From the NCBI GenBank assembly GCA_042219705.1, contig JBDGPL010000130.1:1-35672 (forward strand): DNA of 35,672 bases, given 5' to 3'. The DNA comes from Halobacteriales archaeon (GTDB lineage: Archaea; Halobacteriota; Halobacteria; Halobacteriales; Hikarchaeaceae). The notes below the pieces were generated by a model. It ran no database searches, was not told the DNA's origin, and worked only from the letters and a program-made list of their open reading frames with translations. Shown piece after piece: positions 1,484-14,348 of the stretch (position 1 is the first letter of the stretch; every line of letters starts with the position of its first letter). The position numbers and the translations under genes are program-made.

Positions 1484-1557
1484 GGGACCGGGGTCGACGG
1501 CCTCCGCGTGGCTCCGGTAGTCGAAAGCCCCTTTACCGGTCGCAGGGTAGCCCTCGT

Positions 1558-1867
1558 GCGGACTAGGCCGGGCGGTTAGGCCCCGCCCCGCGCCCGCAAT
1601 ACGGTCTTCAGCGGGGGCCGAACGCCGGGGGCGTCCGGGCCGACGGGCCCGGGCCCCGGGCGCCGACGTCGAAGCCTCGTCCGTCGGGGATGGCGGTCCG
1701 CGGCGCGCGACCGAAGGGCCGCGTCGTCGCGGTTAGCCGGCGGCACCGGGTCAGGCACGGAAGTGAGCAGCCCACCGCCGGACACCCGTCGCTCGACGGG
1801 TCGCGGGGTGGAGGAGGCAACCGGGACTACCCGGGCTCGAACGCCCGGGCCACCCCGGCCCGTCCGC
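1558..1867 (+). ncRNA. ffs: Signal recognition particle RNA (archaeal 7S RNA), about 310 nt
   Basis: The universally conserved helix-8 motif GGGUCAGG-CAC-GGAA-GUG-AGCAGCCC lies at about 1748-1772, with a GNAR tetraloop and the SRP54-binding asymmetric loop. The 5' end GCGGAC.GGCCGGG (1558-) is complementary to the 3' end CCCGGCCCGUCCGC (-1867), closing the long rod. The length and GC-rich helices fit archaeal SRP RNA, and the region lacks a credible CDS. Confidence 0.85.
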
Positions 1868-1893
1868 GCTCTTCACCCGCGCAGCCGCGGCGC

Positions 1894-3082: not shown

Positions 3083-3472
3083 CTACTGGGCCACCACGTG
3101 GGCCGGCTCGACCCGGATGACGACGCGGGTGACGTCGTCGAACTGGTCCGCGAAGTTCTCGACGCCCCGGTAGGCCCGCCCGAGCTCGTTGGCGTGCTCG
3201 ACGGCCCCCTCGGTGGTCACCTCGGCCGGCCCGGAGACGGAGAGATAGCGGCCGACGTCGTCGGGGTCGATGACGTTGATGCCGGCGTGGGGGTTCGCCC
3301 GAACGTTCTTCGCCTTCCGGCGCTCCGCGACGGTGTTGACGAGGACGTGCTCGCCGTCGTAGTCGACCCACGTCACCGTCTGGTGGGGCGTGCCGTCCGG
3401 CCGGATGGTGGCGACCGTGGCGACGTTGGGCGCCCCGAGCAGGTCGTGGTGGCTGGCGGGTATCCCGGCCAT
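3083..3472 (-). CDS. Pyridoxamine 5'-phosphate oxidase family (PPOX-class, probably F420/FMN-binding) protein
   Basis: 129 aa: LLGAPNVATVATIRPDGTPHQTVTWVDYDGEHVLVNTVAERRKAKNVRANPHAGINVIDPDD. This is the typical PPOX split-barrel pattern. Confidence 0.8.
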   Translation of the reverse strand: MAGIPASHHDLLGAPNVATVATIRPDGTPHQTVTWVDYDGEHVLVNTVAERRKAKNVRANPHAGINVIDPDDVGRYLSVSGPAEVTTEGAVEHANELGRAYRGVENFADQFDDVTRVVIRVEPAHVVAQ

Positions 3473-3523
3473 GTGACCCCCTCCCGGGGCCCGACCAAAG
3501 GGGCTTCGATGGCCGGCGTCCAG

Positions 3524-3802
3524 TCAGTCGTAGGGGTAGCGCTGCTGGTGGCCGCAGTCACACGTGACCACGACGTGGCCGTCCTGCAGCCGGTGGCGGG
3601 CGTTCCGGCCGACGACGAGGTAGCGGTCGCAGGCGTCGCAGGTGTGCCGCGTCAGCGCCCGGGGCCGGGACAGCCGGTGGCGTTCCGCGATCCGCCGGGC
3701 GCGGCGGACGTACCGGCGGGCGCGCTCCTCCTCGCCCGCGAGGGTCGCCTCGCGGGCGAGCTCGGTCAGTCGCTCGACGCGTTCGGCGGCGGTGGCGGCC
3801 AT
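3524..3802 (-). CDS. rnp4: Ribonuclease P protein component 4 (Rpp21/Rpr2 family)
   Basis: Internal ATG (complement of 3800-3802): MAATAAERVERLTELAREATLAGEEERARRYVRRARRIAERHRL..TRHTCDACDRYLVVGRNARHRLQDGHVVVTCDCGHQQRYPY. It has the N-terminal helical hairpin plus the C-terminal Cys4-type zinc ribbon of Rpr2. The rest of the 306-aa ORF is artefact. Confidence 0.85.
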   Translation of the reverse strand: MAATAAERVERLTELAREATLAGEEERARRYVRRARRIAERHRLSRPRALTRHTCDACDRYLVVGRNARHRLQDGHVVVTCDCGHQQRYPYD

Positions 3803-4042
3803 GGCCCTGGCGGCTGGAATCTGACCGGAGTACCGCGGTGGGCGGGGTAAAGGGTTGCCCCTCGAGCGGGGTGACGGACACGTCACCGTCGCGTTACGGT
3901 CCAGCGTCGTTCGCCGTCCCGATGCCTCGAAGCGAGGTCGACCGCGGCGGTGGTCGTAGGCCAGGAGTCCCATGGGCTGAAATCGGGCTGAGCCGTCGGC
4001 CGGTCCGGGGCCCGTTCTCCGACGCCGCGGGCCGGAGGTATG

Positions 4043-4048
4043 TTTAAC
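4043..4048 (+). promoter_or_regulatory. Candidate TATA box (GTTTAA) for the mttB-like gene
   Basis: An AT-rich hexamer in otherwise roughly 70% GC DNA lies 32-37 nt upstream of the ATG at 4080, which implies a very short leader. It is followed by the imperfect palindrome CCGCCGTACGGGCGG at 4056-4070. Confidence 0.45.
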
Positions 4049-4079
4049 TGCTGAACCGCCGTACGGGCGGCTATCGTTC

Positions 4080-5543
4080 ATGAGTCTCGACGTCGACCTC
4101 TCCAGCCAGGCCACGCCGTTCATCGACCGACTCGACGCGGACGGCGTCGAGGCCATCCACGAGGCGTCGATGGTCATCATCGAGGAGTACGGCATCCAGG
4201 TCAACCACGAGGATGCCCTCGAGTACTTCGAGGCGGCCGGGGCGACCGTCGGCGAGGACAACCTCGTGCGGGCCGACCGCTCGCTCGTCGAGGACAAGGT
4301 CGCGGAGGCGCCGTCGTCGTTCCTGCTGCACGCCCGCAATCCGGACAACGACCTGCGCGTCGGTGACGGTGACACCTTCCGGGCGCCCGGGTACGGCGCC
4401 CCGAACGTCCGGACCTTCGAGGACGGCCGGCGGAGCTCGACCATCGAGGACTACGAGCTGTTCATGAAGCTGGCCCAGACGGAGGCCCCGATCAACGCCA
4501 CTGGCTACACGGCCGCCGAGCCCAACGACGTCCCCCAGGAGGTCAAACACGTCGAGATGGTCAAGCGGTCGCTCGAGCTGACCGACCTCCCGGTGATGGT
4601 CTCGCCGTACGGCCGTGACCGGACCGACGCGAACCTCGAGATGGTCGGGCTGGCGGTCGGTGACCCCGAGCTCTCGAAACCGTACGCGATGGGGCTGATC
4701 AACACGGTGCCGCCCCGGACGCTGGACACCAAGATGACCGGCGGCCTGGTGGGCCTGGCCGAGCGGGGTCAAGTCCCGGTGGTCTCCTCGTTCATCCAGG
4801 CCGGCGCCTCCGGGCCCGGAACGATGGCCGGCGCGCTCGCGCTGGCGAACGCCGAGAACCTCCTGGGCATCACCCTGGTCCAGCTGGTCAACCCGGGCAA
4901 CCCGGCGGTCTACGGCGTGCCGTCGTCGAACATCGACATGCGCTACGGGTCGCTGTCGATCGGCAGCCCGGAGTCGGCGCTGTTCGCTAGCTTCGCGGGC
5001 ACGATGGGCCGCCACTACGGCGTGCCCTCGCGGGGCGGCGGCGGGCTGACCGACGCCAAGACGGTTGACTACCAGGCTGGCTTCGAGTCGACGCTCGTCA
5101 GCGCCGCGACGACCTGGAGCGGCGTCGACGTGATGCTCCACGCCGCCGGCATCCTCGAGTCCTACTCGACCATCTCCCCGGAGAAGTTCGTGCTCGACTG
5201 CGAGCTGCTGCGGTACCTCGACCGGTTCCAGGCCGGCTACGACATCAACGAGGAGACGCTCGCGCTCGACCTCATCGGCGAGATCGACCCCGACGACCAC
5301 TTCCTCTCCGAATCGCACACGCTGCAGTGGGCCGGCGAGGCCTTCATGATCCCCGAGGTCGTGGACAAGCGCTCCCACGGCGACTGGCGGGACGACGGCG
5401 AGATGACGGCCTTCGAGATCGGTCACCACCGCGTCCAAGAGCAGCTCGACGCCTACGAGCGGCCGGCGCTCGACGCCGACGTCCAGGCCGACCTCGACGC
5501 GTTGGCCGAGGCGCAGCGGGCCGAGATTCTCGACGGCGACTGA
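4080..5543 (+). CDS. mttB: MttB-superfamily (trimethylamine methyltransferase family) substrate:corrinoid methyltransferase, non-pyrrolysine type
   Basis: 487 aa, the full length expected for MttB-family TIM-barrel proteins. Family-typical blocks are present (EEYGIQV.HEDALEYF..AGA, APGYGAPNV, GLINTVPPR, SSFIQAGASGPGTMAGALALANAE, ESTLVSAATTWSGVDVMLHAAGILES). The frame is uninterrupted with no in-frame TAG. Confidence 0.85.
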   Translation: MSLDVDLSSQATPFIDRLDADGVEAIHEASMVIIEEYGIQVNHEDALEYFEAAGATVGEDNLVRADRSLVEDKVAEAPSSFLLHARNPDNDLRVGDGDTFRAPGYGAPNVRTFEDGRRSSTIEDYELFMKLAQTEAPINATGYTAAEPNDVPQEVKHVEMVKRSLELTDLPVMVSPYGRDRTDANLEMVGLAVGDPELSKPYAMGLINTVPPRTLDTKMTGGLVGLAERGQVPVVSSFIQAGASGPGTMAGALALANAENLLGITLVQLVNPGNPAVYGVPSSNIDMRYGSLSIGSPESALFASFAGTMGRHYGVPSRGGGGLTDAKTVDYQAGFESTLVSAATTWSGVDVMLHAAGILESYSTISPEKFVLDCELLRYLDRFQAGYDINEETLALDLIGEIDPDDHFLSESHTLQWAGEAFMIPEVVDKRSHGDWRDDGEMTAFEIGHHRVQEQLDAYERPALDADVQADLDALAEAQRAEILDGD

Positions 5544-5573
5544 GTGACGGCCGGAGCGTGACGGCTCCGGGCC

Positions 5574-6575
5574 TCAGTCCTCGGCGTCGAGGGCGGCCTC
5601 GACCTCGCGGACGGCCGTCGCGAGGTTCCCCACCTTCTCGTAGGCGGCCTTCCGTGGGAGCGGCTTCATGCCGCAGTCGGGCGTCAGGGTCAGCCGCTCG
5701 GCCGGGACGTGTTCGAGCGCGGTCTCGACCCTGGCGCGTATCTCCCCGACGGGGTCGACCCGCTTCGCCTGGGTGTCCACCACGCCGAACCCGACGTCGA
5801 GGTCGAGGTCGCGGCCGCCGAAGACGTCGGCCGGTTCGTCGGCGTCGTCGCTGGCGAACTCGAGGTCGACCTCGTCCACGGGGAACTCGAACAGGTCGGG
5901 CACCAGGTGCTGGTAGTTCCCCGAGCAGATGTGGACGCCCAGCCGGACGGTCTCGGGGACGGCCGCGTCGATGCGGGCGAGGCACTCCTGGGCGATGGTC
6001 CCGTGGGGCGACATGCCGAGGGCGGGCTCGTCGATCTGGATCCAGTCGGCGCCGGCGTCGGCCAACCGGCCGGCCTCGGCGGCCACCAGGTCCGCGAAGT
6101 CGTAGGCCAGCGCCTCGACGTCGTCGTAGGCCTCGAGGCTCCCGAACGACGCCAGGGTGAACGGGCCCGTGACGGTCGTCTTGACCGGGCGGTCGGCGAC
6201 CGCCTGGGCGAAGCGCTGGTCGTCGACCAGCCACGGCGCGTCCGATGAAACCGTGTCGGTCACGGTGGGCATCCGGGCGTTCCACCCCGTGCCGCCGTCC
6301 CGGTCGTAACCGTGGATGAACGGCGCGAAGTGCCCGACCATGTCCGTCCGGCGCTGCTCGCCGTCGGTGACGACGTCGAGGCCGGCCCGCTGCTGGTCGC
6401 CGATGGAGGCCTTGCAGGCGTCGTCCTCGGCCTCCTCGAGGTCGACCTCGTCGTCATCGGCGGCCAGCTCGCGAACGCGGTCGAGCCAGGCCGGCTGGGG
6501 GAAGCTCCCCACGACCGTCGCGAGCAGGAACGACGCGTGGGGGTGGTCCGGCGGCCGGAACCGGTCGTGGGGCAT
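5574..6575 (-). CDS. metE: Cobalamin-independent methionine synthase catalytic-domain homologue (core MetE-like, 333 aa)
   Basis: Internal ATG (complement of 6573-6575): MPHDRF..LLATVVGSFPQPAWL..DVVTDGEQRRTDMVGHF..VTGPFTL..WIQIDEPALG..LGVHICSGNY..LTPDCGMKP. The H-x-C and C-terminal Cys zinc-ligand pattern and the IDEPA motif are typical of the MetE C-terminal domain. The 109 upstream codons of ORF 5574..6902 are Arg/Pro-rich artefact. Confidence 0.85.
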   Translation of the reverse strand: MPHDRFRPPDHPHASFLLATVVGSFPQPAWLDRVRELAADDDEVDLEEAEDDACKASIGDQQRAGLDVVTDGEQRRTDMVGHFAPFIHGYDRDGGTGWNARMPTVTDTVSSDAPWLVDDQRFAQAVADRPVKTTVTGPFTLASFGSLEAYDDVEALAYDFADLVAAEAGRLADAGADWIQIDEPALGMSPHGTIAQECLARIDAAVPETVRLGVHICSGNYQHLVPDLFEFPVDEVDLEFASDDADEPADVFGGRDLDLDVGFGVVDTQAKRVDPVGEIRARVETALEHVPAERLTLTPDCGMKPLPRKAAYEKVGNLATAVREVEAALDAED

Positions 6576-6756
6576 CGTTGGCTGCTCGTCGTCCGCCGGG
6601 GAGGGAATAGCTTCCGCCCGCCGCCCCGGGGGTCGGACGCCGGCCATCTCGGGGGCGGGACACTGGAGGCCGCTGCCGGCGGGGCCCGGCCGACCCTCGG
6701 TATCCTTTTGGCGCCCCCTGGCAAACCCGGTCCGGTATGTGCCGCCGGGGGCCGGA

Positions 6757-8691
6757 ATGACGGACGAGACGTCGGTGCGGTTCCAGCCTTCCGAGCGGGC
6801 GGTCTCGGCCGCCCCCGGGACGACCCTGCTCGAGGCCGCCCGGGACGCCGGCCTCCGCATCGAGAGCCTCTGTGGTGGCGAGGGGCTCTGTGGAACCTGC
6901 AAGGTCGTGGTCGAGGCAGGGGCCGACTACCTGACGCCGCCGAGCCCGGCCGACGAGGAGCTGTTCGCCGAGGACCAGCTCGCCGAGGGCTACCGGCTGT
7001 CGTGCCGGGCGGCCGTCGACCGGCCCGACGGCGAGATCGCGATCACGATCCCGAGCTCGTCGATGGAGACGGGCGGCGTGGTGCTCACCGAGGGGGTCGA
7101 GCGCGACGTCGAGCTCGACCCCGCCATCAGGCACTACCGGCTCGAGCTCCCGCCGCCGTCCCTCGACGACCACCTCGCGGACCGCGAGCGGCTCCTGGCG
7201 GGCCTCACCGACGCCTACGGCCTCGACGTCACGCGGGTGGACCGGCTGGTCCAGCAGGAGCTGCCGAACCGGCTCAGGGAGCACGCGTCTCCCGACGGGC
7301 TGGCCGTGACGGCCACGGTCTACGACGGCGAGGAGGTCATCGACGTCTCGCCGGGGCTCGACGAGGCGGTCTACGGCCTGGCCATCGACGTCGGCACGAC
7401 GACGGTCGCCGTCTACCTGCTCGACCTCCGGAGCGGCGAGCGGCTCGCGGTCAGCTCGCGGCTGAACCCGCAGCACCGCTTCGGCGGCGACATCATGACC
7501 CGGATGCGGTACACCCGCCGCAACGCGGGCGGCCGCGAGGAGCTCCAGGCGGCCATCCTCGACGGGGTGAACGGGGCCATCGAGGAGGTCACCCGCGAGG
7601 CCGGCGTCGACCCCGACGACGTCTACGAGGCCGTCTGCGTCGGCAACACCGCGATGCACCACCTGTTCCTCGGCATCGAGCCCTCCTCCGTCGCCGGCTC
7701 GCCGTACGTACCGGCCAACCACGCCGCGCTGCAGGTCAAGGCCCGCGAGCTGGGCCTCGAGGTGAACCCCGCGGGATACGTCTCCTGGCTCCCCGTCAGC
7801 GGCGGCTGGGTCGGTCCGGACCACGTGGCGGTGCTGCTCGCCTCGGGCCATTACCGGCGCGATGAGCTCACGGTCTGCATCGACATCGGCACGAACGGCG
7901 AGATCTCCGTCGGCAACCGCGACGGGGTGTGGGTGACCTCCGCGCCGGCGGGGCCGGCCCTCGAGGGCGCCGAGATCACCCACGGCATGCGCGCGCAGGA
8001 CGGCGCCATCGACGCCGTCGACATCGATCCACAGACGTTCCAGCCGACCGTCGAGACCATCGGGGGTGGCCCGCCCAAGGGGCTCTGTGGCTCCGGCGTC
8101 ATCGACGCGCTCGCCGAACTGTTCGAAGTCGGCCTCGTGGACCGGCGGGGGCTGTTCCGGGAGGCCGTCCGACCCCACGAGCGGCTCCGCCGGGGCGAGG
8201 ACGACGTCTGGGAGTACGTTCTCGTGACCGCCGACGCGGCCGAGGACGATCAGGACATCGTCCTCACCCAGCACGATCTCCGGGAAATCCAGATGGCGAA
8301 GGCCGCCATCCAGGCGGGGACGCTCGTGCTGCTCGACGAGCTCGGCGTCGACGAGGTCGACCGGGTCGTCCTGGCCGGCGCGTTCGGGAACTACATCGAC
8401 CTCGAGTCCGCGTTGACCATCGGCCTCTATCCGGACGTCGACCCGACGTCGGTGGAGTTCCTCGGGAACGCGGCCGGGAGCGGCGCCCAGCTCGCGCTGT
8501 TGGACCGGGCGAAACGGGCGGAGGCCGACGCCATCGTCGACCAGGTCGACTACTACGAGATCGCCGGCACCGACGTGTTCCGGGACCACTTCATGGACGC
8601 GATGTACCTGCCCCACCGGAATTTCGAGCGCTATCCGCGGGTGAAGGCCCGCCTCGAGGCGCTCCGGCGCTTCGACGACGTGCCCACGTGA
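6757..8691 (+). CDS. Reductive activator of corrinoid enzymes (RACo/RamA-like): N-terminal plant-type [2Fe-2S] ferredoxin domain plus ASKHA ATPase domain
   Basis: Start at the ATG at 6757 (MTDETSVRFQPSERAVSAAPGTTLLEAARDAGLRIESLCGGEGLCGTCKV..YRLSCRA), giving a C-x4-C-x2-C...C 2Fe-2S motif. Downstream are ASKHA phosphate motifs (GLAIDVGTTTVAVYL, CIDIGTNGEISVG) and GLCGSGVIDA. The 147 upstream codons of ORF 6316..8691 overlap the metE-like gene and are artefact. Confidence 0.85.
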   Translation: MTDETSVRFQPSERAVSAAPGTTLLEAARDAGLRIESLCGGEGLCGTCKVVVEAGADYLTPPSPADEELFAEDQLAEGYRLSCRAAVDRPDGEIAITIPSSSMETGGVVLTEGVERDVELDPAIRHYRLELPPPSLDDHLADRERLLAGLTDAYGLDVTRVDRLVQQELPNRLREHASPDGLAVTATVYDGEEVIDVSPGLDEAVYGLAIDVGTTTVAVYLLDLRSGERLAVSSRLNPQHRFGGDIMTRMRYTRRNAGGREELQAAILDGVNGAIEEVTREAGVDPDDVYEAVCVGNTAMHHLFLGIEPSSVAGSPYVPANHAALQVKARELGLEVNPAGYVSWLPVSGGWVGPDHVAVLLASGHYRRDELTVCIDIGTNGEISVGNRDGVWVTSAPAGPALEGAEITHGMRAQDGAIDAVDIDPQTFQPTVETIGGGPPKGLCGSGVIDALAELFEVGLVDRRGLFREAVRPHERLRRGEDDVWEYVLVTADAAEDDQDIVLTQHDLREIQMAKAAIQAGTLVLLDELGVDEVDRVVLAGAFGNYIDLESALTIGLYPDVDPTSVEFLGNAAGSGAQLALLDRAKRAEADAIVDQVDYYEIAGTDVFRDHFMDAMYLPHRNFERYPRVKARLEALRRFDDVPT

Positions 8692-8860
8692 GTCGAACGC
8701 CGCCCGCGGGCCCGGCGCCGAACCAGACCGCGTCGGCGAGCGCGACGACCGTGGGCGCCGTGACCCCCGGCGCCTGTGGCTCGGGGACCTCCCGAAGCGC
8801 CGAAACGGTCCGCGGCCTCCGGCCGACCCAACGCGTCGAGTCGGGGAACGGGTCCCGTCC

Positions 8861-9775
8861 TCACCCCTTCCGGAAGATGCGGTACAGCGGGTGGTCCGAT
8901 GGCGGCCGCCGGTTCTCCCCCATCTGGGCCGCGTACCCGACGTAGGCGTCGGCCAGCGACGTGACTTCGTACATCCGGTCCGCGTCGTGGAGCGGACCGT
9001 AGAGGTTGAAGTCGGCGCCGGCGAAGGTGACGACGGCGTTCGCGACGGCCTGGCGGAGGAGCCGCGAGTCCTCGCTCAGCGGGTCGGTCAGCTCCCACCG
9101 AATGACCTCGTTGTGCGGCGAACAGCCCGCGGGCAAGCCGTAGCGGTCCTTGATCTCGTAGATGGCCTTCGCGACGAACCCGGAGTCGGGGATGTCGATG
9201 ACGGCCGGATCGACGATGACCTTCTCGACGCCGGCCGCCTCGGCCATCTCGAGGTTCTTCTCGAGGGCGTCGAACCGGCCCTGAAGGGTGAGGTTGCCGG
9301 TGTCGATGCTGAGCAGGACCGCCGCCTCGATTCCCGCGTCGGCCATCGCGTCGATCTCCATCTGGGCTTGCTTCGTACTCGACTCGATGGAGTTGTAGAT
9401 GACCCGGTCCTGCAGGCCGATTTCGCCGACGTGTCGGGCGGCCTCGGCCCGGATGGTGGGCGTCGGGCCGTCCATGAACAGCGGGAGGTCGCAGACCTCG
9501 GCCACGAAGTCGACGTGCTTGATGAGCGCCTCCGGGCTGTCGCCGATGACGTCCAGGACCGCCGGGTTGCCCGTCCGTTCGGAGACGGCCTCGACCTGGC
9601 GGATGGCCTCCTCCGCGGCTGCCTCGTCGAACTCGCCGGTCTGCGGGTCCTCGAGCACCCGGTCGCCCTTGTAGAAGAGGCTCCCGACCATGACGGTCGG
9701 GTGCTCGCCGGGCTGGCCGCCGAATTTGACGCCCGCCACCTCGTGGACCTCCTGCTCCGCCTCGAACGTGAACAC
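8861..9775 (-). CDS. mtrH: MtrH-family methyltransferase (tetrahydromethanopterin S-methyltransferase subunit H homologue; probable methylcorrinoid:pterin methyltransferase)
   Basis: FTFEAEQEVHEVAGVKFGGQPGEHPTVMVGSLFY..LFMDGPTP..VIYNSI..IVDPAVIDIP is the characteristic MtrH N-terminal and core pattern. The preferred start is the GTG at complement 9773-9775, which gives the family-typical MFTFE... N-terminus and sits 27 nt from a TATA-like CTTATA. The longest ORF extends to 9844. Confidence 0.8.
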   Translation of the reverse strand: MFTFEAEQEVHEVAGVKFGGQPGEHPTVMVGSLFYKGDRVLEDPQTGEFDEAAAEEAIRQVEAVSERTGNPAVLDVIGDSPEALIKHVDFVAEVCDLPLFMDGPTPTIRAEAARHVGEIGLQDRVIYNSIESSTKQAQMEIDAMADAGIEAAVLLSIDTGNLTLQGRFDALEKNLEMAEAAGVEKVIVDPAVIDIPDSGFVAKAIYEIKDRYGLPAGCSPHNEVIRWELTDPLSEDSRLLRQAVANAVVTFAGADFNLYGPLHDADRMYEVTSLADAYVGYAAQMGENRRPPSDHPLYRIFRKG

Positions 9776-9801
9776 GGCCGCCAATACGCCCGAGTTCGAG
9801 G

Positions 9802-9807
9802 TATAAG
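9802..9807 (-). promoter_or_regulatory. Candidate TATA box (CTTATA on the minus strand) for the mtrH-like gene
   Basis: TATAAG on the plus strand lies 27 nt upstream of the proposed GTG start at 9775, which fits a leaderless transcript. Confidence 0.45.
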
Positions 9808-9968
9808 TTTCCGTTCGCCGGTCCCGTCCTCGGGTCGGCGTCACGACGGCGGTGACCAGCTCGGCATCCGTCGAAACCGGCCGACCCGGCCGCCGACATC
9901 GTCCCTCACGGCGGGCAGCAATACTTATCCGGTTGACACGGCAACCAATACGGTGGTGAACGCTCCAA

Positions 9969-10700
9969 ATGGCTGACGACGAGCAGGACGATTATCTCGA
10001 CCAGGCCGAGGACCGGGCCGCCGACGTGGACGACCCGCTCCTGCTCGACATCCAGCAGGCCATCGTTGACCTGGACGAGGACCGCACCGAGGAGCTGACA
10101 CTGCGGGCCATCGACGAGGGGTACAATCCGGTCGACATTCTCGAGGACGGGCTGACCAAAGGCGTGAAGACCGTTGGCGACCGGTTCGGCCGGGGAGAGG
10201 TCTTCCTCCCCGAGCTGGCCATGGCCGCCGACTGCATGCAGGCCGGCGTCCAGCACGTCGACCCGTTGCTGGCGGAGATGGACCTCGGCGACGAGAAGTC
10301 CGGCGTGATGGTCATCGGCACCGTCGACGAGGACATCCACAACATCGGGAAGAACATCCTCGTCACGATGTTGAAGGCCAATGGCTTCGACGTCGTCGAC
10401 CTCGGGGTCGAGGTCCCCAACGAGGCGTTCGTCGAGGCGGTCGAGGAGCACGAGCCCGACATCCTCGGCATGTCGGCGCTGATGACGATGACGATGGACC
10501 ACCAGGAGGAGGTCATCGAGCTCCTCGAGGAGCACGGCCTCCGCGAGCAGGTCAAGGTCATGGTCGGCGGCGCGCCGACGTCGCCGGAGTGGCGCGACGA
10601 GATCGGCGCGGACGGCTACGGCGACAACGCCAGCTCCGCGGTCACCGAGGCGACGCGCCTGCTCGAGGAGCACCGGGCCGAACGACGGCAGCGCACCTGA
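9969..10700 (+). CDS. Methyltransferase cognate corrinoid protein (B12-binding cap domain plus Rossmann B12-binding domain; MtbC/MttC/MtgC-like)
   Basis: 243 aa. The helical cap (AIDEGYNPVDILEDGLTKGVKTVGDRFGRGEVFLPELAMAADCMQAG) is followed by VMVIGTVDEDIHNIGKNILVTMLKANGFDVVDLG, which carries the DxHxxG His-on cobalamin-ligand motif, then ILGMSALMT and VKVMVGGAP. There is an unusually acidic N-terminal extension. Confidence 0.9.
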   Translation: MADDEQDDYLDQAEDRAADVDDPLLLDIQQAIVDLDEDRTEELTLRAIDEGYNPVDILEDGLTKGVKTVGDRFGRGEVFLPELAMAADCMQAGVQHVDPLLAEMDLGDEKSGVMVIGTVDEDIHNIGKNILVTMLKANGFDVVDLGVEVPNEAFVEAVEEHEPDILGMSALMTMTMDHQEEVIELLEEHGLREQVKVMVGGAPTSPEWRDEIGADGYGDNASSAVTEATRLLEEHRAERRQRT

Positions 10701-11844: not shown

Positions 11845-11906
11845 GTCGGCCGGGCCTCGCCCGCGGTTCGGAACCACTATTCCGGCCGTGGCCGTTGCCG
11901 GCGGCG

Positions 11907-12716
11907 ATGGACGTCGGGCGGTATCTCGACCGCATCGGGGCCGAGTGGCCGGCCGCGGCGTCGCCGACGCTCGACCGCCTCGCGACCCTGCAGCGTCGCC
12001 ACGTGCTGTCGGTGCCCTTCGAGAACCTGGACATCGTCGCCGGCCGGCCCATCCCGCTCGATCGAGCGGCCTATTACGGGAAGGTCATCGAGCGGGGCCG
12101 CGGCGGGTTCTGCTATGAGCTCAACGGGCTCTTCGCGTGGCTGCTCGACGCGCTGGGGTTCGACGTCCGGCTCGTCGAGGGCCGGGTGCTCGAGGACCAC
12201 GGCTTCACCCCGCGGTTCGCCCACGCGGCGGTCCTCGTCGACCTGGGAGCCGACGGGCCGCCGTCGTCACGGTCGGGGTGGCACCTCGCCGACGTCGGGT
12301 TCGGCCGGTTCGCTCGCCGGCCCCTGCCGCTGACCGGCGAGCCCCGGCGCGACGTCGAGGGGACCTACCGGGTCCGGCCCCTCGACGACGCCGGGTTCGA
12401 GGCGCAGCGCCGGTCGGACGACGGCTGGACGGCGGCCTACCAGTTCACGCCCGACGCCCGGGTCCTCGGGGATTTCGAGGACGGCCTCGCGTGGAACGTG
12501 ACCTCGCCGGACTCCGCGTTCACCGGTCGGGTGCTCTGTACGCAGGCGACCGAATCGGGTCGGGTCACCCTCTCGACCCGCGGCCTGACGATCACCGAGG
12601 ACGGCGAGAGGGCCACCCGCGAGGTGGCTCCCGACGAACGGGCCGCGGTGCTCGAGGCGGCGTTCGGCCTCGACGTCGAGGGCCCGCTGTGGCTGCCCGA
12701 CGAGCGGCCGGCGTAG
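11907..12716 (+). CDS. Arylamine N-acetyltransferase (NAT) family protein
   Basis: Internal ATG at 11907: MDVGRYLDRIG..LATLQRRHVLSVPFENLDI..RGRGGFCYELNGLF..FAHAAVLV..WHLADVGFG. The Cys-His-Asp triad context (GGFCYELN, H..LV, ADVGFG) is typical of NATs. The upstream 165 codons of ORF 11412..12716 overlap the GT4 gene in another frame. Confidence 0.8.
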   Translation: MDVGRYLDRIGAEWPAAASPTLDRLATLQRRHVLSVPFENLDIVAGRPIPLDRAAYYGKVIERGRGGFCYELNGLFAWLLDALGFDVRLVEGRVLEDHGFTPRFAHAAVLVDLGADGPPSSRSGWHLADVGFGRFARRPLPLTGEPRRDVEGTYRVRPLDDAGFEAQRRSDDGWTAAYQFTPDARVLGDFEDGLAWNVTSPDSAFTGRVLCTQATESGRVTLSTRGLTITEDGERATREVAPDERAAVLEAAFGLDVEGPLWLPDERPA

Positions 12717-13895: not shown

Positions 13896-14264
13896 TCAGT
13901 CGTCCTCGAGCGCGTCGGCGATGCGCTCGAGCTCCTCGCGGACGTCGCGGATCTCGTCGCGGACCCGTTCCATCTCCCGGGTGAACGTCTCGTCGTCGAG
14001 GCCGCCCCCGCCGCCGGGACCGCCGCCGCCCATGGCGCCGGGGCCGCCGCCCATCATGCCGCCCATCATCTGGGCGAAGGGGTTGCCGCCGCCCGGCCCG
14101 CCGCCGGGGCCGCCGCCGCCCATGCCGGGCGGCCCGCCGCCCATGGCCTCCCGGGGGTCCTCGCCCTCCTCGGCGCGCTGCTCGCGGAGTTCCTCGACGC
14201 GGTCCCGGAACGACTGCTCGTCCTCGGCGTCCTCGCCGCCGGATGCCTCCTCGTCGTCTGCCAT
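13896..14264 (-). CDS. Acidic protein with a central Gly/Met/Pro low-complexity domain flanked by charged helices, function unknown
   Basis: Start at the ATG (complement of 14262-14264): MADDEEASGGEDAEDEQSFRDRVEELREQRAEEGEDPREAMGGGPPGMGGGGPGGGPGGGNPFAQMMGGMMGGGPGAMGGGGPGGGGGLDDETFTREMERVRDEIRDVREELERIADALEDD. The flanks have haloarchaeal acidic composition, and the opposite-strand ORF is Pro/Arg junk. Confidence 0.6.
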   Translation of the reverse strand: MADDEEASGGEDAEDEQSFRDRVEELREQRAEEGEDPREAMGGGPPGMGGGGPGGGPGGGNPFAQMMGGMMGGGPGAMGGGGPGGGGGLDDETFTREMERVRDEIRDVREELERIADALEDD

Positions 14265-14348
14265 GGCCGGGCGTCGTTCCCGGCTCCGGAAAAGGGTTGG
14301 CATTCGGGGCGTCTCGGCCCGTCGGTCGGCCGGTTTCCGGCCCGGGAT

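Follow-up and report, generated by a model that had tools for sequence, protein, structure and literature searches.

A haloarchaeal MtrH-like gene as a probable stand-alone, MtgA-type methyltransferase in a B12-dependent gene cluster

What does a homologue of MtrH do in a haloarchaeon? MtrH belongs to the membrane-bound MtrA–H methyl-tetrahydromethanopterin (methyl-H4MPT):coenzyme M methyltransferase, and haloarchaea use tetrahydrofolate (THF) and lack the biosynthesis enzymes specific to methanopterin (PMC8305020). We analyzed an MtrH-like gene at positions 8861–9775 (minus strand) of a 35,672-nucleotide stretch of DNA from a Halobacteriales archaeon (contig JBDGPL010000130.1, positions 1 to 35,672; hereafter the window). 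The gene is likely to encode a soluble, stand-alone MtgA-type methyltransferase 2 (MT2), which would form one branch of a B12-dependent methyl-transfer cluster of five genes (4080–10700) that alternate in orientation. An earlier note on this DNA had likewise proposed a stand-alone MT2 that works with THF rather than H4MPT, a proposal that the closeness to MtgA in sequence and fold and the kept pterin and catalytic residues support. It had seen two of the five genes of the system, those for the MtrH-like protein and a corrinoid protein; the MttB-family gene, a core MetE gene and a RACo-type reductive activator gene went unreported.

Family, fold and start of the MtrH-like protein

The reading frame noted at 8861–9844 (minus strand) is real and encodes an MtrH-family protein of 304 residues, counted from a GTG start at 9775. 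It matches Pfam MtrH (PF02007) over residues 7–284 (E = 2.8e-76; 256.9 bits vs. a cut-off of 22.8), a match well outside what chance would give. Within this family, which also holds MtgA of the D. hafniense MtgBCA glycine betaine system (PDB 6SJ8, 6SK4), the protein scored higher on the MtgA model than on TIGR01114, the equivalog model of true MtrH (250 vs. 226 bits); the TIGR01114 score of 226.1 bits is below the cut-off of 271.4, and the broad NCBIfam ‘MtrH family’ model gave 284.5, just under its cut-off of 287. The best sequence matches in the PDB were D. hafniense MtgA (6SJ8; 211 bits), Methermicoccus MtxA (207 bits) and M. mazei MtrH (172 bits), in that order.

An AlphaFold2 model built from 59 sequences reached a predicted local distance difference test score (pLDDT) of 95.2. 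The eight top Foldseek matches were all MtgA, with template-modelling (TM) scores of 0.93–0.95 and root-mean-square deviations of 1.7–1.8 Å over about 300 residues, and the matched D. hafniense structures are complexes with THF or methyl-THF. Next in rank were M. mazei MtrH and Methermicoccus MtxA, followed by pterin barrels of the dihydropteroate synthase type; superposition on M. mazei MtrH (9QTP) gave TM scores of 0.93/0.89. The window protein thus has the family and fold of both MtgA and MtrH, and the length of MtgA.

The active site can be compared residue by residue. In MtgA, S32, D75, D102, N129 and D194 hydrogen-bond the pterin ring and N227 is catalytic; the D102A and N227A variants are inactive (PMC7154762). 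The window protein has identical residues at all six positions (S32, D75, D102, N128, D189 and N222), and these were invariant in 15 of 15 haloarchaeal sequences. At position 75, Methanosarcinales MtrH has Gln, whereas the window protein has the Asp of MtgA. Membership of the MtrH/MtgA family, the modelled fold, the catalytic residues and a conserved gene order, described below, are the fixed points of our argument. From them the protein is predicted to carry out the same chemistry as MtrH, the passage of a methyl group between pterin N5 and corrinoid Co. With THF as the pterin, the reaction would be CH3-Co(III)-corrinoid protein + tetrahydrofolate ⇌ Co(I)-corrinoid protein + 5-methyl-tetrahydrofolate, and it would be reversible.

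Where the protein begins was judged by comparison with its relatives. The note had offered a longer, ATG-initiated form starting at 9844, but the codon at 9844–9842 is GTG; the only ATG-initiated frame here, 8631–9899, is a different one, an Arg-rich artefact of the 72.7% G+C. The GTG at 9775, which the note had favoured, is backed by 12 further haloarchaeal orthologous loci. All share the start MFTF[ED], encoded with ATG in 10 and with GTG in the two closest relatives, and all have in-frame stops 1–21 codons 5' of it, so the 23-codon extension of the window frame is not conserved. All 66 other protein clusters at least 66% identical to the window protein are of the Halobacteria type, and most are 302–306 residues long. 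The TATA-like element that the note had pointed out is also real: CTTATA at 9807–9802 (minus strand) is centred about 29 nt upstream of the GTG, with a purine-rich stretch resembling a B recognition element (GGAAA) before it, and such a box with its preceding purine-rich stretch stands about 25–33 nt before the start codon in 13 of 13 haloarchaeal loci. We rejected the start at 9844 on account of the stops in relatives and because the extension would begin upstream of the conserved box; the relatives’ starts and stops, together with the box spacing, make the GTG at 9775 the best-supported start. In haloarchaeal promoters, such a spacing implies a leaderless or very short-leader mRNA, and the MtrH-like transcript would then begin near 9775. 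The public runs searched, including for RNA evidence of this 5' end, matched the window in DNA metagenomes only, the best of them from a salt lake.

Partner genes and the pterin cofactor

The MtrH-like gene is encoded together with an MT1 (methyltransferase 1), a cognate corrinoid protein and a reductive activator, as is MtgA, and this arrangement is conserved in two other haloarchaeal loci (L002 and L014). The predicted methyl carrier is an MtgC/MtbC-type corrinoid protein (9969–10700, plus strand) with the Pfam domains B12-binding (E = 7.8e-30) and B12-binding_2 (E = 5.8e-22), a score of 233 bits on TIGR02370, ‘methyltransferase cognate corrinoid protein’ (cut-off 215), and the DxHxxG motif in the form DIHNIG. 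As the note had observed, its gene is divergent from the MtrH-like gene and 193 bp away. The intergenic region (9776–9968), as read from the sequence, holds a second TATA-like element, ACTTAT, on the plus strand ahead of the corrinoid gene. The activator (6766–8691, plus strand) has domains of RACo, namely a 2Fe-2S ferredoxin domain, the RACo linker, the middle domain and an ASKHA ATPase (Pfam Fer2, RACo_linker, Raco_middle and RACo_C_ter; E down to 1.3e-91). Its gene converges on the MtrH-like gene across a gap of 169 bp (8692–8860) that lacks the DUF1638 gene found between the same two genes in five other loci (L001–L005); the window cluster appears to have lost it.

The predicted MT1 is an MtgB-like member of the MttB superfamily (4080–5543, plus strand; Pfam MTTB, E = 4.7e-137). 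Its frame of 487 codons is uninterrupted, and the protein is therefore a non-pyrrolysine member of its family. D. hafniense MtgB was its best PDB match (2QNE, 9YCE; 378 bits, vs. 153 bits for pyrrolysine MttB, the trimethylamine methyltransferase). Mutagenesis and a crystal structure have assigned glycine betaine binding in MtgB to Y97, R312, H348 and F356, and the F356Y variant is near wild-type (PMC13080624); these residues align with Y105, R318, H354 and Y362 of the window protein. We infer that it is a glycine betaine:corrinoid methyltransferase, or acts on a close quaternary amine.

An 11-mer, CCGGCCGACCC, occurs in three exact copies in the window (6686–6696, 8819–8829 and 9877–9887, all on the plus strand; 0.43 expected), each in an intergenic region of the cluster. 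As a shared regulatory motif it was set aside: its 9-mer core is common across the window and the 11-mer is absent from orthologous clusters, so the recurrence is probably chance. Rfam revealed no riboswitch in the cluster, its sole match being a signal recognition particle (SRP) RNA outside it.

Which pterin the enzyme uses was judged from the surroundings of its gene in 13 distinct haloarchaeal genomes or contigs. RACo adjoins the MtrH-like gene in 11 of 13, a MetF-type methylenetetrahydrofolate reductase (MTHFR; PF02219) adjoins it directly in 9, FolD lies at most two genes away in 8, and a corrinoid protein falls within the examined flanks in 6. Three Halodesulfurarchaeum loci (L008, L010 and L014) have islands of aldehyde:ferredoxin oxidoreductase (AFOR), dimethylglycine (DMG)-dehydrogenase-like, electron transfer flavoprotein (ETF) alpha/beta, FolD, MTHFR, MtrH-like, RACo, formate dehydrogenase (FDH)-like and formate–tetrahydrofolate ligase (FTHFS) genes; L014 is additionally flanked by a BCCT transporter, a corrinoid protein and an MttB-family gene whose product is 76% identical to that of the window. 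In Halomicrococcus gelatinilyticus a 359-kb plasmid carries the cluster, with two dimethylglycine-dehydrogenase-like genes and a formate dehydrogenase next to it. The GCM10025711 locus (L001) also has serine hydroxymethyltransferase (SHMT) and a BCCT transporter; there, the AFOR-like and MTHFR genes by the MtrH-like gene (3265–5142 and 8981–9843) continue in a second, uncalled frame, through either a frameshift or an assembly error. A close counterpart of the window, L002, a metagenome-assembled genome whose MtrH-like protein is 88% identical, has the same five genes plus DUF1638 between RACo and the MtrH-like gene.

The note had also stated that no other mtr gene is present, and indeed no Pfam family of MtrA–G appeared in any plausible reading frame of the window, nor was any mtr gene found among those called or probed in the 13 haloarchaeal loci. 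Thus, in contrast to the MtrH of the membrane complex, the window protein has neither the Mtr complex nor the mtrEDCBAFGH operon around it, its partner is a soluble corrinoid protein and not MtrA, and its orthologues have THF enzymes as neighbours. MTHFR, FolD and FTHFS are folate-specific families; since no mtr gene appears in these loci and haloarchaea do without methanopterin biosynthesis, THF is the probable cofactor, an indirect but strong deduction. The note’s preference for THF gains from the MTHFR, FolD, FTHFS and SHMT neighbours in other haloarchaea and from the sub-threshold TIGR01114 score.

A number of observations weigh against the assignment to a THF- and betaine-linked system. 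The score on NF047990, the NCBI equivalog model of MtgA, was 249.9 bits against a cut-off of 550, a model tuned to close bacterial orthologues. All of the residues that hold the p-aminobenzoyl-glutamate tail of THF in MtgA (H38, Y230, R236, F243, F251 and W272) are replaced in the window protein (D38, I225, D231, R238, N246 and R267). Those positions vary in other archaeal members too, so the MtgA tail residues mark the bacterial subfamily and not the reaction. With the ring residues kept and the tail residues replaced, pterin-dependent methyl transfer can be read from the sequence, but the type of pterin cannot. Nor does family membership alone fix the cofactor, for one stand-alone member, Methermicoccus MtoA/MtxA, probably uses H4MPT. 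THF enzymes were found near the MtrH-like gene neither in the window nor in its closest relatives, L002 and L003; the link to THF comes from orthologues 65–80% identical to the window protein. As for the substrate, the MtgB-like protein is 41.5% identical to D. hafniense MtgB, and the four-residue betaine motif was termed a minimum set by its authors (PMC13080624), so another acidic quaternary amine is a possible substrate.

Core MetE and a shared corrinoid protein

The fifth gene of the cluster, read by its family as a methionine synthase, encodes a stand-alone core MetE of 333 residues (5574–6575, minus strand; Pfam Meth_synt_2, E = 1.4e-48). The protein consists of the catalytic Meth_synt_2 barrel only and has the Zn-ligand motifs HxC, E and C, as do the core synthases MesA, MesB and MesC. 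Core MetEs have no folate-binding domain and are predicted to take their methyl group from corrinoid proteins, and only split MetE has been reported from Halobacteria (Price et al., PMC7857596); no Halobacteria genus is named in those supplementary files of that study that are in text form. The window MetE is accordingly best described as a predicted methylcorrinoid:homocysteine methyltransferase.

Homologues fell into two tiers. The first, of about 70 clusters 56–90% identical to the window protein, includes proteins from the MtrH-like carriers ASO44, GCM10025711, QS_1_68_17 and Halodesulfurarchaeum. The second, 47–51% identical, comprises the ordinary haloarchaeal ‘methionine synthases’, which are the catalytic half of split MetE; the window MetE is 48% identical to this half. 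In Halovivax, the gene of the split-MetE partner overlaps that of the catalytic half. In contrast, the window core MetE has no adjoining folate-binding partner, and no split-MetE partner was found within 10 kb of tier-1 core MetE genes in seven loci.

Core MetE also has a conserved setting of its own. A module with an MttB-family gene on one strand (minus) and core MetE, RACo, DUF1638 and a corrinoid protein on the other (plus) recurs in L203 (8477–14536), L206 (4236–10328) and L207 (3051–9179), and also in L204. In the first three, which are unrelated contigs with different flanks, the genes abut or overlap and there is no MtrH-like gene. At least nine short contigs of exactly matching lengths appear in both the core-MetE and the MtgB match lists and are presumably the same contigs. 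The module looks like an operon for corrinoid-dependent methyl transfer from betaine to homocysteine. It fits the prediction of Price et al., to which it would add a host group and a donor protein that are both new. The window cluster, for its part, resembles a version of this module that has gained the MtrH-like gene between RACo and the corrinoid gene and lost DUF1638.

Two other placements of core MetE were observed. In QS_1_68_17 (L205, 1–8679 and 10001–18159) it lies by a cobalamin-biosynthesis block (CobN, CbiC, CbiA, CobA and others), with RACo–DUF1638 and FolD also nearby. In Halodesulfurarchaeum sp. HSR-GB and Halobacteriaceae archaeon GCM10025711, a core MetE 60–65% identical to that of the window sits within the operon of the A-type ATP synthase, where the genes for subunits B and D flank it (L198, 10001–11056; L201, 10001–11041), an odd but conserved place for a methionine synthase.

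A system of comparable logic is known from an aerobe. In Ruegeria pomeroyi, genetics has shown that one corrinoid protein of MtgBCDE serves both betaine demethylation and methionine synthesis; the system has methyltransferases for betaine (PF06253), THF (a bidirectional enzyme) and homocysteine, is reactivated by RamA and DUF1638, and includes a MetF paralogue adjoining the THF methyltransferase (PMC12478193). The window cluster is predicted to share one corrinoid protein among betaine, THF and homocysteine arms in the same way, but is built of other parts: its THF module is MtrH-type (PF02007) where that of Ruegeria is MetH-type (PF00809), and its homocysteine module is MetE-type (PF01717) in place of PF02574.

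In the scheme that these comparisons suggest, with THF as cofactor, glycine betaine as substrate and a single corrinoid protein shared by all arms, the MtgB-like enzyme would demethylate glycine betaine, or a similar quaternary amine, and place the methyl group on the Co(I) corrinoid protein. From there the MtrH-like enzyme would hand it to THF, for oxidation or assimilation, or core MetE would hand it to homocysteine to form methionine, and RACo would re-reduce any corrinoid that had fallen to Co(II). The direction of flux may change with supply. Because the MtrH-like step would be reversible, methyl-THF could feed core MetE: without betaine, the MtrH-like enzyme would load the corrinoid protein from methyl-THF, and the same proteins would amount to a multi-protein methionine synthase.

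Generalized to some Halobacteria, this becomes a modular B12 hub, in which one MtgC-type corrinoid protein is kept active by RACo and DUF1638, loaded by an MtgB-type enzyme or from methyl-THF through the MtrH-like enzyme, and unloaded by core MetE to yield methionine. We put this forward tentatively, as an idea with somewhat less than an even chance of being right. If true, core MetE would for the first time be paired with a corrinoid protein of its own in organisms other than strict anaerobes with methanogenesis or the Wood-Ljungdahl pathway. The hub would in effect be a corrinoid-dependent betaine-homocysteine methyltransferase, and also a MetH-like synthase assembled from non-homologous parts (MtrH-type for the pterin module, MetE-type for the homocysteine module); split MetE would no longer be the sole methionine synthase of Halobacteria.

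Origin, competing explanations and meaning

To place the gene among its relatives, we compared 118 sequences in a neighbour-joining tree, a distance method, with 100 bootstraps. The input combined the haloarchaeal genes, bacterial MtgA, sequences from the PDB, Methanosarcinales MtrH as the sole representative of true MtrH, and 72 stand-alone archaeal genes from Bathyarchaeia, Asgard groups, Thermoproteota/Brockarchaeota, Archaeoglobi and Hadarchaeota. The haloarchaeal genes were monophyletic (100/100) and sister to the stand-alone MtrH-like genes of non-methanogenic archaea (74/100), never grouped with bacterial MtgA (0/100), and stood well apart from Methanosarcinales MtrH, itself a separate clade (100/100). 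On average, the window protein shares 44% identity with the stand-alone archaeal clade, 35% with bacterial MtgA and 33% with Methanosarcinales MtrH. The tree places the haloarchaeal genes with stand-alone archaeal MtrH-like genes and away from the MtrH of the Mtr complex. MtgA, although the best structural match, differs from the window protein in its identity of about 35%, in the equivalog cut-off not reached, in all of the THF-tail residues, in its place in the tree and in its host, which here is a haloarchaeon with an acidic proteome.

The nearest relatives are thus the stand-alone genes of Bathyarchaeia, Asgard, Brockarchaeota/Thermoproteota, Archaeoglobi and Hadarchaeota, at 38–48% identity. 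Of the 46 sister-clade loci that measured 10 kb or more, 16 had a corrinoid protein nearby, 15 had RACo and 5 had an MttB-family gene; in 6 the gene lies between FTHFS and FolD (two Brockarchaeota, the rest Nitrososphaerota, Thermoproteota, ‘Thaumarchaeota’ or unclassified). A MetF-type MTHFR was found in none of the 46 with the same tblastn probe set and was detected only beside the haloarchaeal genes. Unlike the sister-clade genes, the haloarchaeal ones form a clade of their own and, among the loci compared, are the only ones with core MetE in the cluster.

Scanned by pattern, 185,579 species genomes yielded the haloarchaeal type in at least 11 loci; the scan used a closer alignment of six sequences, an alignment of 20 having no sufficiently conserved stretch. 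The gene is patchy across Halobacteria and plasmid-borne in one species. The tree and this distribution suggest an old lineage of soluble MT2 enzymes that is accessory in Halobacteria, and would fit vertical descent with many losses and transfer alike. Of the two origins that the note had offered, a relic or a lateral acquisition, the first therefore falls in so far as it means the Mtr complex, the gene grouping with stand-alone MT2 genes (74/100), and the choice between transfer and inheritance is only narrowed.

The window itself gives no sign of a recent arrival. It is archaeal DNA of 72.7% G+C with very high third-position G+C (GC3) and acidic proteins, features typical of Halobacteria; the cluster genes (GC3 0.94–0.97, acidic products) match their neighbours in composition and are native to it by this measure, and we rejected recent lateral transfer into this genome. 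Around the cluster lie chromosomal housekeeping genes (SRP RNA, MutS, aTrm56, TFE-alpha, NAD kinase and glycosyltransferases); the archaeal SRP RNA (1556–1869, plus strand; Rfam RF01857, 163 bits) marks the region as chromosomal. Two further genes deserve mention. Between two GT4 glycosyltransferase genes lies one of the arylamine N-acetyltransferase family (11889–12716, plus strand; PF00797, E = 7e-55), a family unusual for a haloarchaeon. At 13896–14303 (minus strand), an acidic protein of 135 residues has a long Gly/Pro/Met low-complexity core (MGGGPPGMGGGGPGGGPGGG...) with charged helices on either side, and no Pfam match.

The most serious competitor of the MT2 reading concerns the direction of the reaction more than its nature. 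The main role could be anabolic, with the MtrH-like protein as a methyl-THF:corrinoid methyltransferase that feeds core MetE, the two forming with the corrinoid protein and RACo a four-protein, B12-dependent methionine synthase for which betaine is an alternative donor. The window, L002 and L003 have core MetE by RACo, the MtrH-like gene and the corrinoid protein without a nearby MTHFR or FolD, as this would predict. In QS_1_68_17, the MtrH-like gene is paired solely with MTHFR, a methionine-pathway enzyme, and the stand-alone core MetE of the same genome adjoins cobalamin-biosynthesis genes and RACo–DUF1638. The occurrence of core MetE (56–90% identical) in the MtrH-like carriers ASO44, GCM10025711, QS_1_68_17 and Halodesulfurarchaeum, the predicted need of core MetEs, lacking a folate-binding domain, for corrinoid-protein donors (PMC7857596), and the bidirectional THF methyltransferase of Ruegeria (PMC12478193) all point the same way. 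However, the MttB/core MetE–RACo–DUF1638–corrinoid module exists without an MtrH-like gene in three unrelated contigs, so core MetE can do without the MtrH-like gene when betaine is the donor, and in Halodesulfurarchaeum the MtrH-like gene stands among clearly catabolic genes (DMG-dehydrogenase-like, ETF, FTHFS and FDH-like). We consider a chiefly anabolic role unlikely; it is in any case compatible with the MT2 assignment, being the same reaction in the opposite direction.

A true MtrH, left over from an Mtr complex like that of methanogens and still acting on methyl-H4MPT, is what the gene’s label in PGAP and IMG (‘tetrahydromethanopterin S-methyltransferase subunit H’) would suggest, along with its Pfam membership and the superposition of its predicted fold on M. 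mazei MtrH. Nearly everything else speaks against it and leaves it highly improbable: mtrA–G are absent from the window and from the 13 haloarchaeal loci, where THF enzymes are the neighbours; the protein is below the TIGR01114 cut-off, 33% identical to Methanosarcinales MtrH and separate from it in the tree, grouping instead with the stand-alone MT2 genes of non-methanogens; its residue 75 is the Asp of MtgA; and haloarchaea have no methanopterin biosynthesis (PMC8305020). We give least credence of all to an inactive or decaying copy carried along with the cluster. The patchy distribution in Halobacteria and the loss of the relatives’ DUF1638 from the window would be in keeping with decay, but the frame is intact, the length and N-terminus are family-typical, the catalytic residues are all kept across a clade whose members are as little as 65% identical, the gene has a conserved promoter-like element ahead of it, and the structure prediction is very confident.

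For the favoured assignment, a soluble MT2 of the MtgA type, the kind of enzyme is known, as a folate-linked MT2 of B12-dependent methyl transfer, and its use in Halobacteria is undescribed in the literature searched. Our searches found no report on MtrH-like or MtgB systems in this class, including for the strains HSR-GB, AArc-GB, H-GB1-1 and H-GB2-1. MtgB-like genes are common in Halobacteria. Their carriers include Halodesulfurarchaeum sp. HSR-GB, Haloarculaceae archaeon H-GB1-1 and H-GB2-1, and Halalkaliarchaeum sp. AArc-GB (P0173, P0278, P0329 and P0354), and some ‘-GB’ isolates also have core MetE genes. The ‘-GB’ names suggest enrichment on glycine betaine, and work on betaine-using haloarchaea beyond the literature searched. 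The more novel lead is the core MetE–corrinoid operon rather than the MtrH-like gene.

These results bear on how such genes are named and read. The label ‘tetrahydromethanopterin S-methyltransferase subunit H’ is a mis-annotation in organisms without methanopterin; haloarchaeal homologues of methanopterin enzymes are known to be mis-annotated (PMC8305020), and MtrH joins the names to be read as tetrahydrofolate in haloarchaea. In the debate on a methanogen ancestry of Halobacteria, MtrH is removed as simple evidence, the gene belonging to the stand-alone MT2 lineage and not to the Mtr complex. With the core MetE operon, the prediction of corrinoid donors for core methionine synthases can be put to a concrete test that is open to genetics. 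Finally, the cluster points to B12-dependent use by haloarchaea of glycine betaine, which ranks among the most plentiful organic solutes of hypersaline habitats, and in relatives the betaine route comes with a complete island for THF-linked C1 oxidation.

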